Origin: Mobula hypostoma | Lineage: Eukaryota | Assembly: GCF_963921235.1 (NCBI RefSeq) | Contig: NC_086097.1 | Coordinates: 85,128,001 to 85,192,000 of the forward strand | Length of the DNA: 64,000 nucleotides | Direction: 5' to 3' | In this document: positions 3,150 to 61,200 of the stretch, piece by piece | Layout of the letters: each line of letters starts with the position of its first letter | Position numbering within the stretch: position 1 is the first letter of the stretch | Translations under genes and position numbers: made by a program | Notes under the pieces: model-generated | The model's input: the letters and a program-made list of their open reading frames with translations, nothing else | Database searches by the model: none | What the model was told of the DNA's origin: nothing

Positions 3150-3507
3150 ATTAGGTAATACAATCCCCACCTCTTACACAACAGTGAGTGTGTGTGTAAA
3201 TATGATTAGGTAATACAATCTCCACCTCTTACAGAACGGTAAGTGTATGTGTAAATATGATTAGGTAATACAATCCCCACCTGTTACACAACAGTGAGTG
3301 TGTGTGTAAATATGATTAGGTAATACAATCCCCACCTCTTACACAACAGTGAGTGCGTGTGTAAGTATGACTGGGTAATACAATCCCCACCTCTTACACA
3401 ACAGCGTGTGTGTGTATAAATATGATTAGGTAATACAATCCCCACCTCTTACACAACAGTGAGTGTGTGTGTAAATATGATTAGGTAATACAATCCCCAC
3501 CTCTTAC
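3150..3507. repeat. 55-bp minisatellite, about 6.5 copies
   Basis: Unit ATTAGGTAATACAATCCCCACCTCTTACACAACAGTGAGTGTGTGTGTAAATATG repeats with an exact 55-nt period (TTAGGTAATA at 3151 and 3481, six periods apart). Confidence 0.97.
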
Positions 3508-3658
3508 TTGTGTCCAAGTATAATTTGTACTGACCAGTTTCAATGTGTGAACAATGATTTTGAGGTAGTGTAATATTTTACAGCACAATTACAAATCTGC
3601 CTCGGGGAAAATACATTCTGCATTTGTAAGAGGGAAATTGTGAGAGAAATAAGTTTTG

Positions 3659-4123
3659 TCAGTCAGTCAGTCAGTGAGTGCCGTCCCGAATCCAGGGTTG
3701 GCGGCTATGCACCTCCATCTTCTTCGATCTTGCAACAGCACCGAGTGCAGCCTCTCCTCCAGTTTGTTCTCGCTAGCCACCTTGGCACCGCCTGCCGCCG
3801 CCCCCGCCAAACTCGAGCCCGAGGCCGTGTCGGCCTCCAGCCGCGGCCGCTTCTTCGAGCTCGGCCCTTCCTTAGACGGAGGCCTTGGGCAGGTCCAGGC
3901 ACACGGTGCAGCGCCCAAGTTCATCATGTCTCTTCTAACTAGGTGCATAGCATACGATTCGTAGATACGTGGCGAGGCTTTAATCTCTTCCATGGAAGAT
4001 GGCCGTCGGCTCATAAGGAGCTCATCCGCCCTTTGTCAGGTCTTGTTTTTTTTCAGTCCTGCTAGGTGTCCTCACACCCTCCTTACCAGACTAAGTCCGG
4101 TGGGGGAGCCGGCCCAAATTGCC
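3659..4123 (-). mobile_element. Non-autonomous RTE-tailed retroelement carrying a CYHR1/ZFTRAF1-like coding fragment
   Basis: 8-bp TSD AAGTTTTG at 3651-3658 and 4124-4131. (CTGA)n 3' tail on the minus strand and an RTE-like ORF end 'QDRRRWRCIAAN'. Internal GC/CpG-rich segment encodes 'KKRPRLEA...AAAGG...KLEERLHSVL'. Confidence 0.75.
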
Positions 4124-6139
4124 AAGTTTTGACAACATTGGAAATTAATAGTAAATAGAAAGGTATAGTTTGTCCTACCACCTGTTTCCTACCTTGCTTT
4201 GGTGGGCTTCTGTGTTTTTCCTCAAGAGCTGTTGTTCCTTTGGAGACGTCAGCTTTCGTAGCTGGCACTGCGGTATTTCAACCAAAACTCAAGGGAAGGA
4301 TTTGACTGTATTTAATACTTTATATTGGAACAAGTAATGGGACTTAGGGCAGATAAATTTCCAGGATCTAATGGCTTTCACCTCAGAGTGCTTAAAGGAA
4401 TAGGTTGCAAATTTGTAGTCACATGAGTAGCTTTCCAGAGTTCACGGAAGCTTGGTACATTTCAGGTACCAGCTTTCGTGCAGGCAGCTTTGTAGAGAAC
4501 TGAATCCTAGTTGCAGTGTGTCAGCCAGTGGATCCCTAACATTAGCATCAGCGCTTCACCACATGAAGTCAGAACCAAGCAGAGGCAGTGAACTTGATCT
4601 CCAATTCTGCTGCAGGAATCAAGAATACGCAGACAATTGTCACATCCTGGGCCGAGTGGATAGATGCATTTGATATTTAGCTCCTCATATTTATGCCGGT
4701 CGTGGCTGGAGAACCCTCTCTTATGATTTGGTCTGGCAGCCCTGACGGTTGGACAAAGTGCTGGTTAGTGGCTGTGACGGCAGTTTGTGACAGAGCCTCA
4801 GGATCCACTACCATAGACCGGGTCATTAATGGCAGACTGTTCCACCTCCTAGGGCATCCATGGAAATAAGACTTGGAGGATATTTTGGGCCAATTTCAGC
4901 ACAAAAACTAAATGCGGCCTCAGGAATAAAGGAACAGACAAATGCAATCTGCTCCAGAAGTGAAATCCGAAGCCTAGCAGGTGCTCTGGCATATGCGAGA
5001 GGTGGCATCATTGTGATACGTAGCATTCAGTCCACAAAATGTATTTTAGAGACAAACGGAACACATCTCTCTGACCAGATTCGTTTCGTGCAAGTAACAC
5101 TTCTGACTTCCAATTGACTGCAGTTTGGAAGGCAGCTGAAAACTTTGAGGAATAAGGAAGTATTGGGTAGATATCTATTCCTAGGTACAATCTGGAATCC
5201 GATCACAGGCTTATTCTACTGCAGAGGCAGTAACATGCTGTGACCCAAAAGGAGGCTAAAAAGATAAATTCACCCAGATTGTGGAGAGTAATGAATAGGT
5301 CAATAGCAGCTTACAATGGGACAGTAAGTCTTCCGGTTCTGTGTAGCAACACAGTCCACATACTTATGTGGAGCCATGGTACTGCAGTAAAGAGTGGATA
5401 TGGTGCACAGAAAACACCCTTATTTATGGTGTTGCTTTACATTAGCTTTTATTTATTCCTTCATTATTCCTAATCCTTCTGTGAATTTATCTTTCTGCCT
5501 CCTTTATATGATTTCTCAGCTCTGCCCTTTCTGTAGTACAATAAATCCCTGCTGTAAGATCAACGGCTTCAGTTTAATAAAATATGAAATATGTTGATCT
5601 CCAGATTTCAGCTTTCAGCAAATAAAATCATTCCAGTGAATCACTACATATATATCATTTGATGGAAATTAATGTATAGTTTTACTATTTAAACTGAGGG
5701 ATCAGTATTGGATTGGATTTCTGGTTTTCTCCTTTATCTTCATTTGGCATGCCATCATTGAACTGGCTGATTAGACTTGTCCAAACCAATTTTACAAATA
5801 TCCCCATCCAGGTCCTCTAGTGAACAATCTCTATGACTAGCAGATGACACTTAGCAACATCACCATCAAAGAATGTTCAACAAACTTTCGTCTTGTCAAA
5901 CACCAATTGCAGAGCGGCCACTGGAAAATTCTATTGCATCGTGTGAAAATGCAATCATCTCATCAATGCTGTCATGTTTACGTTCCCAAGTGCCAAGTTC
6001 CACTCTTCTATGGATATTGAAGTTGTCCCTCCTCAACCCGAGATCAGAAAGGAATGGCATCTTAGCTCATTCCACTGCTCAGAGTACCTAGGAGATTCAC
6101 CAGGATGTTACCTGGGATGGGGTGTTTCAGTTATGAGGA

Positions 6140-7335: not shown

Positions 7336-9595
7336 AACAGCAGTATCCCCTATAAAATAGGTGGAAGAATAGGTTAAAACAGCAGTATGTTTGTCTTTTG
7401 AGATCCTGGTAGTAAACAGGCTCGCATGTGATCTTAGATGTAAGCGTGCTTTGTCAAAGAAACTTTGATTCCTATCTCCTGATATCTGTAGGCTGTACAA
7501 ACTGCCCACAGATTGGCAATTTGAGAAGGAAGATTGGTGTGCAATGTGGAAAAAAAAGGTCAAAACAGTTTAGTAAGAGTGTGATGTGAAGTTCTTGCTG
7601 AAAAGTTAGTTTCTTAAGTCACAGTGGAGAGCATTGTGCATCTAATCCTGGGTACAAAGCAAGGCTGGGAAACGCTGGGAGCAATGAGTGTACAGCAAGA
7701 GCATTGTAAATCCTTCATATGGGATAAACAGACCCATGGGCTATATGGTGTCTACAACGTTTGTTGCTCTCAAGCCAACAGGTTGCTTCTTGGATAGTGC
7801 TGACAGGTAGGGGGCACCTTCCTCAGCCCTTCTCCACCTGCCTTGAGTTGCAATAACATGACACTATAATTACACGCTGTCAGTTCCTGGCAGCTCAGTC
7901 CACCCTATCAATAAATATCTCAGGAGTTACTGGTGAAGGAATCCTCCTGGAAGTGTCATGTCAGCTCACTGCTGAAAAGGGAGAACAGCCACCCCCAGCT
8001 GTTAAATTAGCTTATTGCATACTTTTATAGCAACAAGAAACTCTTAAACACAATCTAGTCTCACTTTGCCAGTACAGTTAGGAACAAGATTAGTCTCTAC
8101 AAATGCTAAGCAGCCCATATAGATATACCTCTCTTCTTTCCAAGAGTATATGTGCTGAGATCCAGCTTTGACCAATGAATGGATTGGTTACTTTTCTGTT
8201 ATTTTTAATGTTAATTATAAATCAGTAATTAAGTTTTTTATTTTGTATACCAAATTTCATTTTTTTTAATACAGAAGTACTGGCACGCTATGATACTTCT
8301 CTGTAATGCAGGGAGCTATAATTTCTGGCCCCTTTGTTTTCCCTGGAATTCTTTCATTCCAAATGCCGATCTTTACACACAGTGGCATTGAGAATGAAAG
8401 AGTTCCGGAGAAAACAAAGGGGCTGGCAATTACTGTTTCCTGTTTCCTGACACCACAATTCGGATGGCCGTTACATTGCCAAATTGGTACATCCACGCTT
8501 TTGCTTCCTGTCAAGGGCACTAATTTGCAGTCAGAATTAAGGCCATGGTAGATGTAGAAGTAAGGAACCTTGCAGCTATTCAATCTTGCTCCTTTTACAA
8601 ATGGTGTAAACTTCCTGACAGTATCGCCTTGTTATTCAGAAGGAACTCTGCTTTACAATGATGTAACTCCTCCATGCAAATTGTAAATAATGTTGAAGAA
8701 TAATTAAAAGCCTCAAATTTGATTGTGATTAAATCTGTGATGACATAGAGCAGTTTTTTTATGATTTTGGTCCAACATAACAAGCTAGATGTGGGGGGGA
8801 AACAGGACGGAGGCCTTGAACTGTTATAAATGTATGCTGCAAATTCAGTGAGATTTTAGTGATTTCTGATTTCATCGAAACCTGATCAAACTCCAGTCTG
8901 GTAATTAACACCTCTTCTGTGGATATTTTTGTGTAATAAAGGGAATCTATGCAGAAGTTAACATTTGCAAAATGAAATTACCTTATTATTTCAAGTAATA
9001 AAATGCATGAAAACATTGGGATAGCATATTTTTATTTTATTTCAAATTTTATTTTTACTTTTTTTAACTGAAGTGAAATTTATCAGAGTGAATAAATACG
9101 TCAGCTTTTATCTTGTGTCAGCTGCAACCTCTGAGAGCCATTCTAGTGATCACTGTGTTGAGTTGTGTGTGTTCTGAATCACTGGCACCTTTACCATTAT
9201 TACCCTGAAGAGGCTTCATGTCATTGTAATAAACGTGTTAGTATGAAACTCCTTTGGCGTCTTAACACGGATCTGAGCTTACATATTTTTTGACATTTAA
9301 AGCAACCAGCAGGGCTATTTCATCCAGTCACTTTACTGCGATGGTTAATAATACACAAAATGCATCCAATTACCAGGGTGAAGCTTTCCAAGTTTTGTAT
9401 GTTATTTATCCACAGGTGTAGTGCACCTCCTCCCCAGCAATGCAATCTCTGCTCTGCAGTATTAACAAACTGCCCTTGTTGGGCAGTGCTCATCCATCGC
9501 TGCACCCACAGTCCCACCCTCTCCCTCCCCACCCTTTGCCTCCCTCCCCTGCTTCCTTTCCCTTCCCTTGTGACATTATTGTTTTTCATTTGCAG

Positions 9596-9702
9596 CAAAA
9601 GAGCTCAGATCAAAATAATTGATGATGAGGAGTATGAGAAAAACAAGAATTTCTTCTTTGAGCTGAAGGAGCCACGCATGGTCGATATGAGTTTACAGAA
9701 AG
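9596..9702 (+). CDS. SLC8A3: Sodium/calcium exchanger 3, mutually exclusive exon A (CBD2)
   Basis: Long pyrimidine tract and TTGCAG acceptor. 107 nt encoding KRAQIKIIDDEEYEKNKNFFFELKEPRMVDMSLQK; the PRMVDMSxQK ending is characteristic of NCX3 exon A. Donor AAG|GTGGAG. Confidence 0.93.
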
Positions 9703-11092
9703 GTGGAGTACTCACCAGAATGAGCCCCTACTGAAGGCCTTCCTCTCTCCTTTCTTTCCCCTTTGTCTCATTTCATCCCTCCTCTTCTCTTTTGTCTTGT
9801 TTGAATGCTTGATTCCCAAGAGACACTTAACACTGGGGCCCTCCCCGCAGTCAGATTGGTGATGTGCCACCCATTTCAGTCTTGGCTTGTTAGTGAGTTG
9901 CTAATCAGGCCCATCTCCATGGCTGCAGTAACCTGCCACCCCCAAGCCCCTGTTCTTGACATCCTGCCCCTTCCTGCTGCTAACAGCTAGTATCCCAGTA
10001 GCCTGTGGAACACATGAGGACAGGTCTGGTTGTGTGCTAAGTAACATGCTCTCTTGTTATACCCGGACTGCTTTGACTGGTGTGGGGAGTCCATTCCATG
10101 ACTTCTCCTAAATGAATTCTACAGAGAAGCTAGTGAGGAAGAGCTACCAATTACTTGTGCAGTATGTACATTATATGTTGCGAATTGTGACTTTCAGCTC
10201 TGGGAGAGGTGATGTATGAATGTAGGTGAGCCACATTTGTTATGCGAAGCTCACCATTCATTGGTAGCACTGTATTTCATAGAGGCACATGGCCTTGGTG
10301 GCGAAGATATGGCATGAAATGAAGTCTCTACCCGCCCCCCCCCCCATATTCAGTAAAAACAGAATTCTCTCAACTATGCAATATCAGGCAACAAATGCCC
10401 GTAATAAATTCAAAAGGAGTATACTGATGAAGAATCTTATCTCAAGAAGTATTGAGTCGGCCCTTGCAGGCATCACCATCTTGCTCGGAATTGGCACCTG
10501 TATTCTGCCACAGGAACAAATTACCTGGCCCCAGTGTAGGTGATCTCCTTCTTAGACTAGAAGTATCACAGAATCCATCAATAAATACTGGAAGGCTGCA
10601 CACGCTCTGGTGACTCCATGAAAAAGTTCCATGCCCTAAACTCTCTGGAAAACTGCTACATCCTCCCACCTCCTTCTGACTATTGTAAAAAGACATGAGC
10701 AACTTTTAATAGTGTTTAAAAAATCACTGTACCATTCAGAGGCATCTGAAAAGAATTGAGTTGAACCAAGTAATTTAATAAAAGATAAACATGATTTTAA
10801 AGTTGAATAATGAATCAAAAACACCAAATTTAAAGTGTTAAAATATTCCAAATTCTGTGCGATTTTAAACTGCTGATTAGACAACAGAGAGGGAGGAATA
10901 GTTAAAAGGTAGGGCTATTGAGGAAGTGTGAAATAAAACCCGAGAGAGCTGCAATTACTCAGCTGATCATGCAGGTTCAGTGGAGCAAAGGACAGAGTTA
11001 ACTTTTTAGATCTTTAATCTTGCATCGGAACAGGAAAAAAATTGAAGTCAAGTATTTGTACTAATATTTATTTGTAGTGAGAGGTAAAGTGC

Positions 11093-13225: not shown

Positions 13226-13790
13226 GATTTCAATGCCTATTGTCTACCTAAACCTGGCCTAGAATTTGACTTGCTGCATAAGGCTTTCAAAGCAAAGGAC
13301 GTGACAAAGAAAGGATGTCACGTGTGCTGGGAACCTGTCCTTTCAACCTATCTTTGCATTGCCTATAGACTACAGTGACTGGCATTCTTAACGTGTCAGG
13401 TGCAACCAGCCTGTTTTACATGTAGTGCAACACGATTTCACCAGGACACTGCAGCAGTAAAGGCATTCTAAATAAAGACCCTATGTTTTTTAAAATGTGA
13501 TTATATTGACTTCAGCATAGAAGAACTGAAGGGTTTGGCAGGTTACATGAGCTCTGTCTTTACCACTGCCTGTTAGGTAGTGGGGGGGTGGGGTGTGGAA
13601 CAAGGTCCAAATGTAGCTTTATTCAGCCTCCTAATAGGCCAAGAAAATGGTGGCATGTGACACCACTATGGTTGCACTATAGGCCCTTCACTAATCAGCA
13701 AGCAAGTTTGCAATTAAAAGTAAGTTGCATGTCTGACTGCAGTGGTTTTCGAGCAACCCATTGTACATTTTCTCTCTTATATCCTTACAG

Positions 13791-13894
13791 GAAAACCATA
13801 AGCGTTAAAATAAATGATGATGAGGAATACGAAAAGCAGGAACATTTCTTCATTGTGCTTGGTGAACCGAAATGGATGAAACGAGGAATATCAG
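13791..13894 (+). CDS. SLC8A3: Sodium/calcium exchanger 3, mutually exclusive exon B (CBD2)
   Basis: Acceptor TTTTCTCTCTTATATCCTTACAG. 104 nt encoding KTISVKINDDEEYEKQEHFFIVLGEPKWMKRGIS, matching recalled NCX3 exon B (…GEPKWMERGIS). Donor CAG|GTGTGA. Confidence 0.95.
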
Positions 13895-15239
13895 GTGTGA
13901 GATCCTGAGATGTAACGGCTTTTTTTTTGAGAAAATCTATTACTTTTCCTCCTGTATTCCCGCTCTCACCCTGTTTCGGTCATCTATGCCTAGTGCTTTT
14001 TTTGGTTTCTCTCCCAGATCATGTGCACTGCATTTTCTCGGCCTGGTCTAGTACTTGCATATAACATCTTGTTGCCGCAAACCGTGCGATGGAACTGGGA
14101 TACCGAGGCAATGCACGTGACTTCATTTTCCTGTATTCAGCTTAATCCTCTTGCTATTTTATTCATCATCTTTTTTTTTGTTTGGAAAAAATAATACATT
14201 ACTTAAAAATTGGCATCTTGGAGGGATGCTTTCCAGGCAGTCAGTCATACACTTTCATTACTAAGGACACAGCAGCCCCTTTGTTTGAATGGCAAAGAAT
14301 GTTTTTCAAATACCCTTAATGCGCGTGTGAGTGTGAATAAGGCTGGAAAGAATGGGTCAAATCCAACTGAATCCCAGGCATAAAGTAGCAGACGGTTTAT
14401 TGTCTTAGTTTGCTTCTATTAATCAAATGCATTTCTCCATTTTATATACCTTTTAAGTTACTCCATTTATCTTGATATATCTTTGTCCTGTCTCCATCCT
14501 ACCCATCCTGTCTCACATTCCAGCCCTCCTCTCTCATGGAGAGATAAGGAAAGTCAAAGTTATTCTCCTTGGACCAAGGAAGATTAAGTGGTGGTTAAAA
14601 GAGACGCTCGAAATGATGAGGGGCTTTGGTGAGTCACAGTGACTATAGGCAGGAGCATTGGACATAGACTTAAGGTGACTGAGACGTAAGAGTCAAGTGG
14701 GAGATGATTCTTCTGTTCCAACGGTGGTTAGTTATATTATAAAACTTAACAGGTGATGGAGGCAGGTTTTTGAAAGGGAAGTGCTTTAGTATTGAAGAGG
14801 CAAAGTTTGAAGGGGGTTGAGAACAAGGGAGGAGATTGGGACCAGTTGGCTTCAAAAAGCAACACGAATTCTCTCTATGAGCCGGGTACATCCTCATGCT
14901 GAGCATTTCCTAGTGACTATCAATCGGCCCTTCAAGTGACATTGCTACAGAGCCTGGTCTGGTCTTAGATCCATGTCCAGAGAGATTCCAGTCTAATTTG
15001 CCTCCATGCTCCACTTCCCTTTCTACATATATAACTTGCTGATGTGATCCTTGGCCATGCTGTGATGTGGAAACTTTAATGCTATTTGGCATGAAGAGGT
15101 GATGTCATGGCACAGTTGCGATTCAAGAGGGCTCCATCAGTTCACAGCTAATGAGCAGTCATGAGGAATGGCTTGGGTCACTTTTCCTGTTCAGTTACCT
15201 TCCCATTTTACTGAACTGTCATTTAAATAAATCACCTTA

Positions 15240-58297: not shown

Positions 58298-61200
58298 CAG
58301 TGTTTTTTTAGATTATGAAGACACGCAGTCCTCTTTTTATTGTCACTTAGTAATGCATGCATTAAGAAATGATACAATATTTCCTCCAGTGTGATATCAC
58401 AAAACACAGGACAGACAAGACTGAAAAAGCTGACAAAACCACATAATTATAACATATAATTACAATAGTGCAACAATACTATAACTTGATGAAGAAGCCC
58501 ATGAGTACAGTAAAAGTTCAAAGTCTCTCAAATGTCCCACATCTCACGCTGACGAGAGAAGGAAGAAAAACTCTCCCTGTCATGCCGACCACAGTCCAAC
58601 TCTGAGCCATCCGAAAACTTAGAGCTCTGATCAGCTCTCCGACACTGAGTACTGAGCGCCATCTCTGTCCAAACGATTCGACCTCAATCTTGGTCACCAA
58701 CAGCAGGCAAAGCCAGGGATTTTGAGGCCTACCCTCTGAAAGATTCCTGACCACGCAGTAATGACAGCAGCAAACAAGCATTTCAGAAATTTCTCCAGAT
58801 GTTCCTCTGTGCTTTCATGTCTGTCTCCATCAAATCAGAATTGTCCATGGCCCCTATTTAACGAATACGATATCATTTTCACCGGAAGGCTGTGCACGCG
58901 TGGTGCGCTGCTGTCTCTCCTCCCGCCAATTTTCCCAACCTTTAAAGGCCAATGTCCCCCTAAAGCACTTTCATATTACCTGTGCACTGTTCAGCAGATT
59001 CAATATCAATGTAATCCTTGAGCTTGATGATTTTTTGCAAGAGTTGAAATATCTAGTTTGAATTGTGACAGCAAAAGCCTTAAGTCCCCACACGTAACAA
59101 TGTCCAAGTGGTTTCTGTTATTTGTGAGTAGGTGGTTCTCTCCACTGAAGCCTCTTTCAATAAGGTAGGAGGATGGAAATGCGATGAAGAGCAGTTTGGC
59201 TCTTCTCCAAAGACCAAAAATCTTTGGATGATAGTGTAGCCACATACTACAAAAGCAGACATTTTTGAAAAATGTGTTTGCTTCTTCATCATTCTGAATT
59301 TTTATCAGTTCTTCTTGCAAGCTTTCTTTCTGTCCTTCCATTTTGCAAAGAAATGGGTTAATTGTGCAGTCTGTTTTCCAGATCATTCAAATTCTTGAAT
59401 CGATTCTGAAAATCCTTCTTCAGTGACTGCAGGTGTAAGCAGTACTCTTGCAAATCACCATCTGTGAAAGAGAGTGGCATAATTTCCATGCAGGGAAACT
59501 GTGAGAACGTTCTTCTCCCAATGTTTTGCTTATTTATTTCCAATTTTCCGATAAAAGTGGACACTGCACTTATTACCTTGATTAAATCGAAATTCTCAAC
59601 CTGCAATTTCATATTTAGGATGTTCATTTTGTCATACAGATCAGCTAGGTATGCCACATCTCCATGTAGAAGTTCAGTCTTGTTTCCCAAACTTTTGTCA
59701 ACTTTAAGCAAAAATTCAACCACAGTCAAAAAGATCAAAGAAATATTTTAAGCAGCAGCCCTTTGACAGCCAACGCACTTCAGTGCAAAGAAGTAAGTGT
59801 TCCAACACTTCATCGTTATCTTGGCATAACTGGTGAAATATTCTGCTATTTAATGGATGAACTATAATTTTGTTGATAGCAGTTATTACAAGAGTCATGC
59901 TTGAGAAAAGTCACTGGCTGAAGCTTTTGGCTGCGAGATGATGATGGTGAATTACACAATAGAATGCAAACATACTTGGAATTTCTTTTCTCATAAATGC
60001 TACTAAACTAGCATGGCGACCTGTCAGATATGGCGCTCCATCTGTTGCACAACAAATCATGTTCCTAATTGGAATACTTTTATCCTTGTCATTTTGAGCT
60101 CATCATAGATTGATTCTCCATTGATATTTGTTTTTAACACTTTACCAAAGAGAATTGCTTCATACACTTTTCTATTTTTGATAAATCATACATATACCAT
60201 TAGCAATGTCTCATTGTCTCAAACAGTTGACTCATCCAGTTGTATCCCAAATTCTGTTTTTGTAGCTCTGTGCATAGCTGATACTTAATGTCTTCGCTCG
60301 TTTTATCAATACAATGAGCTACAGAGTTATTACTCAGAGGAATTGATTTTAAAATAGTGGTATCCATTTTTAGAACAGTATTGAGCACTTCTGATACAGC
60401 AAGCATTATTAATCTTTCACCAATTGTATGAGATTTTCCACACTTTGCTATCTTTTTGGAAATGTTATAAGAAGCAATAAGGAATAAGCAATAATCATTT
60501 TTACCTTTCTTGGAAAATGACTTGAGTGTGCAACACTTTTCAAATGCTTCTTTCATCTTCTGAAACTGAGTAATACCATAAGTAGCCTTTTCAGAGTGTC
60601 TTTTATGGAAATGTTCCTGTAATCTTGATGGTTTCATGGCTTCATTAGACAGTATAGTATTACAAATAGACACACGGGGCATCGCTGGTCTGACGGGAAT
60701 GAAATAAAACCATACTCCAGGTATGTAACATTGTATTGATACACTTTCTGGAGTTTCTGTTTCTCAGCAGGATAAGAATTGAAGGCTTCACCGCCTTCAG
60801 ACTCGTAGAGATAATGCGGTACATATTTATCCGTCATTAATGGATTAGTTAAATTAATTAAAATAAAAAATTAACACAAACTTTGAATGCCTATTGGATG
60901 TTGACAATAGCAGCAAGTTGACAGGGATGGAATGATGGTAGCGGCACACAAAGGAATGGCAAGGCAAAGATGAAGATGAACACAACAGCAAAATTTACAT
61001 TAACAAGGGTTTAGATTGGAATCTGAATGTTAGAGCTGGTGTTTAGCAAGCTACTTCTATACTACTCCAGTGTGTGTGATTGACCAAAGATGGTTCTTAG
61101 CTGTACATGAAGCTGAAGTCACTTTGAACACTTCAAGAGGAATCCTCTGGGTTGGCAGGTTCACTGATTGGCTCTATTTCACTATTTGGTTCTGGCTAGT

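Follow-up and report, generated by a model that had tools for sequence, protein, structure and literature searches.

Bipartite non-autonomous LINEs of the RTE clade, among them Bov-A, RTESINE1/2, WALLSI3 and MAR4_MD, lack ORFs and join the 5′ part of one RTE to its extreme 3′ end with a microsatellite tail; the coding body is deleted, and the copies carry target-site duplications (TSDs) and undergo 5′ truncation (Kojima 2018, PMC5786205). In that survey, such elements usually, not strictly, retain the extreme 5′ end of the LINE. Host sequence is carried by other families: 33 mouse circRFWD2 pseudogene copies, flanked by LTR sequence, contain non-colinear host exon sequence that was fixed and multiplied with a retroelement (Dong et al. 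2016, PMC4897178), and SVA_F1 (84 copies) and pt_SVA_D6 (94 copies) are non-autonomous non-LTR families with a GC-rich host first-exon piece, from exon 1 of MAST2 and STK40, respectively (PMC6139936). LTR-mediated retrocopies (Tan et al. 2016, PMC5131818) and LINE-1/mRNA chimeras (PMC13174262) contain partial mRNAs that replace internal sequence or are fused to a LINE, and are re-amplifiable. Finally, ADAR hyper-edited (ultra-edited) RNAs are characterized by dense clusters of A>G changes that do not extend beyond a long double-stranded stem (PMC3197674).

A 465-bp element on the minus strand at positions 3659–4123 of the window (the whole 64,000-nucleotide stretch of Mobula hypostoma DNA that was analysed) shares these features. 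Judged by its sequence, it is a bipartite non-autonomous RTE. In contrast to the described bipartite RTE LINEs, a host coding fragment takes the place of the body and, in full-length copies, an inverted, A>G-laden arm replaces the extreme 5′ end of the RTE. Relative to circRFWD2, the non-colinear join lies inside a single exon, 4 nt off the splice donor; a non-LTR RTE serves as carrier, the host piece comprises exactly one lap, the copies are about 20–30 times more numerous, and the parent circRNA is putative. Whereas the exons of SVA_F1 and pt_SVA_D6 are spliced colinearly onto the 5′ end, the host piece here sits inside the element in permuted order and is about ten times as abundant. Unlike LTR retrocopies and LINE-1/mRNA chimeras, the element lacks microsimilarity at its junctions, keeps both RTE ends and presents the host sequence in permuted order. 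The A>G pattern, described for RNAs, is here found in genomic DNA and shared by inheritance across an entire retroposon family. Neither the family nor an edited founder is described in the literature titles and abstract openings covered, a range outside which subscription papers and repeat databases fall.

The window copy is flanked by an 8-bp TSD, AAGTTTTG on the plus strand, at 4124–4131 on the element's 5′ side and at 3651–3658 on its 3′ side, in agreement with the original prediction of a 465-bp insert. Its head (3913–4123, minus strand) comprises RTE 5′ UTR and first codons, with the first RTE ATG at 3948, and matches the RTE 5′ majority with 93% identity across 219 columns; it carries 7-nt and 10-nt deletions relative to the RTE, and the copy is 5′-truncated by about 115–120 nt relative to full-length copies. 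Two pieces of ZFTRAF1 (CYHR1) exon 1 follow on the same strand: piece B (40 nt, 3873–3912), which holds the RING start CTVCLDLPKASV and is identical to the parent at 40/40 positions, and piece A (138 nt, 3735–3872; EGPSSKKRPR...EERL.SVL), 94.9% identical to the parent in this copy. The tail (3659–3734, minus strand) represents the last ~76 nt of an autonomous RTE, with the RTE stop codon and (CTGA)n; here the family majority is 97–99% identical to RTE 3′ ends. The host portion had been estimated at ~155 nt; it in fact measures 178 nt (3912–3735), the RING start included. The predicted 115-aa frame (4014 to 3667) is open and contains the expected middle peptide and the QDRRRWR...(CTGA)n end, but it is not a family feature: the ATG at 4014 is private to the window copy, the family majority having GTG, and it extends a 93-aa family frame (3667–3948, minus strand) that opens at the first ATG of the RTE, closes at the RTE stop and is intact in 32/70 copies. 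The window protein P0001 had no Pfam match under an E-value of 0.08 and, used as a query, found no longer homologue, whereas the parent exon did find homologues; in a protein atlas search, SINA-type RING clusters were the only lead.

The element had been described as antisense to SLC8A3. It does lie on the strand opposite an SLC8-family gene, as Na_Ca_ex matches on the plus strand at C1:84.79 and 85.30 Mb bracket the window; the analysis did not discriminate the paralogue, and SLC8A3 is a name that we assume for the host gene. Two SLC8 exons that resemble each other and both contain a DDEEYEK motif lie on the plus strand at ~9550–9720 and ~13750–13900 and presumably form a mutually exclusive A/B pair. 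Also present in the window are a minisatellite at 3150–3507 (55-nt unit, 6.5 copies, 91% matches), 150 bp from the element, and a 187-aa stop-free stretch on the minus strand (60203–60763), which we take to resemble a hAT/SCAND3-type transposase fragment.

The window element is a 5′-truncated member of a non-autonomous RTE family of ~580 nt. As predicted, the three-part structure is multicopy: a pattern spanning the internal junction had 404 exact matches in the genome (control 0). This pattern is present in 37 of 70 copies (10/19 and 11/28 in subsets), and the 404 matches thus correspond to a family of roughly 750–1,000 members. A genome search with the window element gave 2,248 first-look candidates; the 40 that were scored are near full-length and, the window copy aside, 92–94% identical. 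Among loci retrieved by the left part of the element, 30/30 were family copies; selection on the 5′ arm gave 40 loci, of which 37 align without a break over head, insert and tail, and three are partial, with other breakpoints. TSDs of at least 7 nt were found in 33/70 copies, compared with 5/70 flank-swapped controls, and in 25 of the 40 copies chosen on the 5′ arm. Outside CpG sites, 18 family copies have diverged by 2.6% and 29 RTE copies by 3.1%; this similarity indicates that the two were active in the same period. Capture at the window locus itself was rejected. A Pol III SINE was also ruled out, as the full-length copies have neither a tRNA nor an Rfam-matching head: ARAGORN identified a tRNA in 0/5 full-length copies and none in the window, and Rfam gave no match in three full-length copies and none of weight at the window element.

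Turning to the donor of head and tail, both match one autonomous RTE of the same genome, as had been proposed. The family head is 93% identical to the RTE 5′ region, which has 36 matching places in the genome, and differs from it by deletions of 98, 7 and 10 nt. One long copy (L125) contains the head, pieces of the endonuclease and reverse transcriptase frame, and the tail together, and the donor has Pfam matches to both enzymes; RNase H families did not match the scanned RTE ORF pieces. The clade name RTE is our assumption, based on the single APE+RT layout and the QDR..WR end typical of RTE-clade ORFs rather than on a tree. Of 30 loci retrieved by the tail, eight match in the tail only, and the six of these that were translated either lead into a reverse transcriptase frame of the RTE type or match the 3′ end of such a frame, which closes with the element's end peptide and (CTGA)n. 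RTE copies reach ~60–150 nt further upstream, where the family begins with its inverted arm instead. No bases are shared at the two RTE/host junctions. Several features of the RTE copies themselves were also observed. Comparison of L131, L142, L144 and L156 with L137, L148 and L157 reveals at least two sequences upstream of a common UTR, which suggests 5′ switching; the L144 variant includes a short ATG-started frame that could be a host exon. In L115/L150, L147 and L157, RTE 5′ and 3′ pieces are opposite or nested, as in twin-primed or tandem insertions.

The middle of the element derives from ZFTRAF1/CYHR1, as predicted: the parent exon returned 115 matches, of which the named ones are nearly all ZFTRAF1/CYHR1, with the best (79%) in Pristis. 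The unpermuted motif occurs at a single locus (L031) in the 3.5-Gb genome (control 0), and this parent is the first coding exon of ZFTRAF1/CYHR1. In reverse-strand L031 numbering, the middle of the element reads 1508–1547 followed by 1370–1507, in sense orientation. In the gene, piece A directly abuts piece B, which lies downstream, with no gap or overlap; the entry and exit points of the host sequence are one and the same phosphodiester bond, with no base gained or lost. The 178-nt piece is an exact circular permutation of its source, its two halves swapped. The family majority is identical to the permuted parent at 175/178 positions, and at 98.6% over piece A. Piece B ends 4 nt short of the exon-1 donor, a phase-0 site from which the Pristis protein continues, and in the element this end is joined to an AGG within the exon. 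This join is exact and lacks microhomology, with a 3-nt repeat 2 nt off it. The original prediction had the capture stopping just before the RING cysteines. The RING start is in fact present, 138 nt upstream and out of its native frame, and the cut falls just before these cysteines because the piece is circularly permuted; upstream of the KKRPR segment, the family majority encodes CTVCLDLPKAS in a second reading frame. No exon 2 of the parent turned up within ~10 kb. In the parent locus, a strong-looking cryptic 3′ splice site (branch-like CTAAC, 16/22 pyrimidines, CAG|G) lies 24 nt upstream of the captured piece, inside coding exon 1 and in phase 0 with the donor.

At the start of full-length copies, ~55 nt of the UTR, in its already deleted form, recur in inverted orientation and create a long stem (z = −10.8 for the family majority and −5.7 for a real copy, L187). 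Neither this fold-back head nor the permutation was part of the original prediction. Compared with the RTE on the transcript strand, both arms together carry A>G changes at 16/21 positions and T>C at 1/19 in the raw count; with one doubly counted CpG site dropped, the figures are 15/20 and 0/18 (Fisher p = 1e-6, a descriptive value only, as the edited sites stem from one event and are not independent). Outside the stem, A>G changes number 0/56 in the remaining head and 0/28 in the insert. Comparison of one arm with the other, which involves no RTE reference, gives 35 Watson–Crick pairs, 13 G·U, 2 A·C and 2 other pairs (n = 52), G·U accounting for 13 of the 17 non-Watson–Crick positions. The changes weaken the stem (−101 versus −124 kcal/mol). 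In 40 copies chosen on the 5′ arm alone, all 15 sites are mostly G, and most reversions to A fall at two CpG positions. The last remnant of the edited hairpin in the window copy is GGG at 4113–4115 (minus strand), where the RTE has AAA, including all 15 scorable copies of 30. As side observations, many family copies start at about majority position 24–28, a truncation hotspot inside the stem near the CCATGG of the 5′ arm, and L002/L075, L028, L046 and L058 are missing some of the loop and inner stem of the hairpin, which may mark a sub-lineage or repeated skipping of the stem by the reverse transcriptase.

Retroviruses are known to undergo A-to-G hypermutation in inverted repeats. Since A-to-I edits of a hairpin RNA followed by reverse transcription leave this very pattern, the A>G-laden hairpin is likely, on the evidence of its sequence, to be a fossil of ADAR hyper-editing in the founder RNA of the family; DNA-level processes are disfavoured, as they would hit both strands or strengthen the stem. 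ADARs disfavour a 5′ G neighbour (PMC3197674); such a neighbour precedes 5/15 edited A's, a point against editing, although it also precedes 3/4 spared A's and the sites are few. It is highly improbable that the cluster reflects ordinary divergence, GC-biased conversion or a different RTE subfamily instead of RNA editing. Such a reading could draw on the RTE 5′ majority reference, which is built from just seven copies, and on the at least two 5′ variants of the RTE, yet RTE copies have A at three tested clusters (9/9, 15/15 and 21/21 scorable copies of 30), the T>C mirror is absent, no A>G changes occur outside the stem, and the two arms, although copied from one molecule, differ by G·U on one strand only.

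For the host piece, we propose, with a probability of about 0.6, that the RTE reverse transcriptase captured it in exactly one lap around an exon-1 RNA that was looped or circular. An RTE copy would have shed 98 nt of UTR together with its coding body and acquired the exon piece as the enzyme jumped from the RTE tail to the exon RNA, passed the end-to-start join and exited at the entry point, where either the circle was nicked or the enzyme met its own cDNA; it would next have jumped onto RTE 5′ RNA. Fold-back would then have doubled ~55 nt of the UTR as the inverted arm, the hairpin transcript would have been A-to-I edited on both arms and reverse-transcribed, with the edits fixed as G, and the edited founder would have been copied some 750–1,000 times in trans by RTE protein via its tail. 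The order of deletion, fold-back, editing and amplification is suggested by the deletion being common to both arms and the edits differing between them. One-lap capture from RNA is supported by the sense orientation, the end near the donor and the homology-free junctions. Template jumping needs little or no pairing (PMC8857657), and LTR-type switches show a median microsimilarity of 6 bp (PMC5131818); the RTE/host junctions, which have no common bases, resemble the former and not the latter. The source on template jumping also cautions that pre-ligation of RNAs explains L1 chimeras (PMC8857657). The circle's 3′ end lies only 4 nt from the splice donor of exon 1, which suggests that it is the end of an RNA; that it does not lie exactly at the donor counts against an RNA route. 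Exact-match genome patterns gave 0 matches for an unedited deleted head and 0 for a head joined to the tail without an insert, searches that decayed or single precursors can escape, and no second lap of the host piece occurs among the 70 copies. The precursor searches found no surviving intermediate that would fix order or template.

A route at the DNA level, a serious rival although in our view the less likely one, would start from a 178-bp microDNA circle from the CpG-island exon, cut once and end-joined into a break that deleted the RTE body, with retrotransposition merely amplifying the product. An exact permutation free of gain or loss is the default outcome for a once-cut circle, the piece is exonic and GC-rich (127/178 G+C), and an AGG repeat occurs at its start and 2 nt beyond its end, small circles of this kind often having end repeats; according to PMC8040306, microDNAs are ~200–400 bp long and arise with a preference for exons, 5′ UTRs and CpG islands. 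This route predicts neither the sense orientation nor an end 4 nt from the donor, a combination with a rough chance of a few percent, and it requires an encounter, in germ-line cells, between a free circle and an RTE copy undergoing breakage. A linear route without any circle, in which at least two template switches on intact mRNA or on the gene (through replication slippage or repair) came to abut by chance, is improbable. LINE/mRNA chimeras are known (PMC13174262), and PMC4897178 considers, as an alternative, that reverse transcription ran across 5′ and 3′ ends lying close together; independent switches, though, do not explain why piece B starts right after the last base of piece A, except where the enzyme stopped at its own cDNA, which is one-lap capture itself, the best explanation.

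Within one-lap RNA capture, a special case that we consider rather doubtful is that the template was a 180-nt circRNA back-spliced from the exon-1 donor to an exonic AG, 2 nt of which were lost later; the family would then be a circRNA-derived pseudogene amplified by a LINE. Adding two bases at the join gives an exact donor-to-AG|G junction, from phase 0 to phase 0, three further losses, of 98, 7 and 10 nt, are seen in the founder, and the 33 mouse circRFWD2 copies provide a precedent (PMC4897178). Against this, no copy retains the 180-nt join, either by genome pattern (two matches, both in an unrelated repeat, as against two for the control) or among the scorable joins of the fetched copies, and the implied acceptor is poor (9/22 pyrimidines, GAG), with a better one (16/22, CAG) 24 nt upstream. 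The coincidence is in any case weak, as AGs occur about every 13 nt in the exon, where 34 are listed. Back-splicing into a first exon is unusual.

As to what the copies do, the original prediction had envisaged RNAs directed at the parent gene. It appears improbable that the family yields antisense or small RNAs regulating ZFTRAF1, or a KKRPR-bearing peptide: hundreds of copies are about 95–98% identical to the parent exon, the hairpin head is strong even in a real copy (z = −5.7), the 93-aa frame runs from RTE start to stop in those 32 of the 70 copies, and retrocopy-derived silencing RNAs are reported in a moth (10.1101/2022.04.04.486979), but the insert is in sense orientation and outside the hairpin, the copies decay with CpG loss like neutral DNA, and the frame or its ATG is lost in 38/70. 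Most likely, the copies spread as parasites with the ZFTRAF1 piece as a passenger.

The mechanism of circRNA retrotransposition is termed 'mysterious' by Dong et al. (PMC4897178). Here the donors of all three parts are preserved in a single genome, so that every junction is resolved to the base and the one-lap model is open to testing with purified RTE protein. The capture of first exons, as in SVA_F1, is extended to RTE elements of cartilaginous fish, at a roughly tenfold higher copy number. The head offers an internally controlled case of RNA editing that was likely fixed into DNA and then amplified, and a comparison of the edited with the unedited hairpin in a retrotransposition assay would address whether ADAR editing restricts or frees a retroposon. 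Taken as a whole, the account in which a circular first-exon RNA was copied for one lap and an ADAR-hyper-edited transcript then founded a family of about a thousand copies, with editing perhaps freeing its spread, is tentative, and we hold it to be on balance doubtful. If it is true, RNA edits were written into the germ line, and the loosening of a near-perfect hairpin by editing may have allowed the family to spread, so that a host defence would have created a successful transposon.
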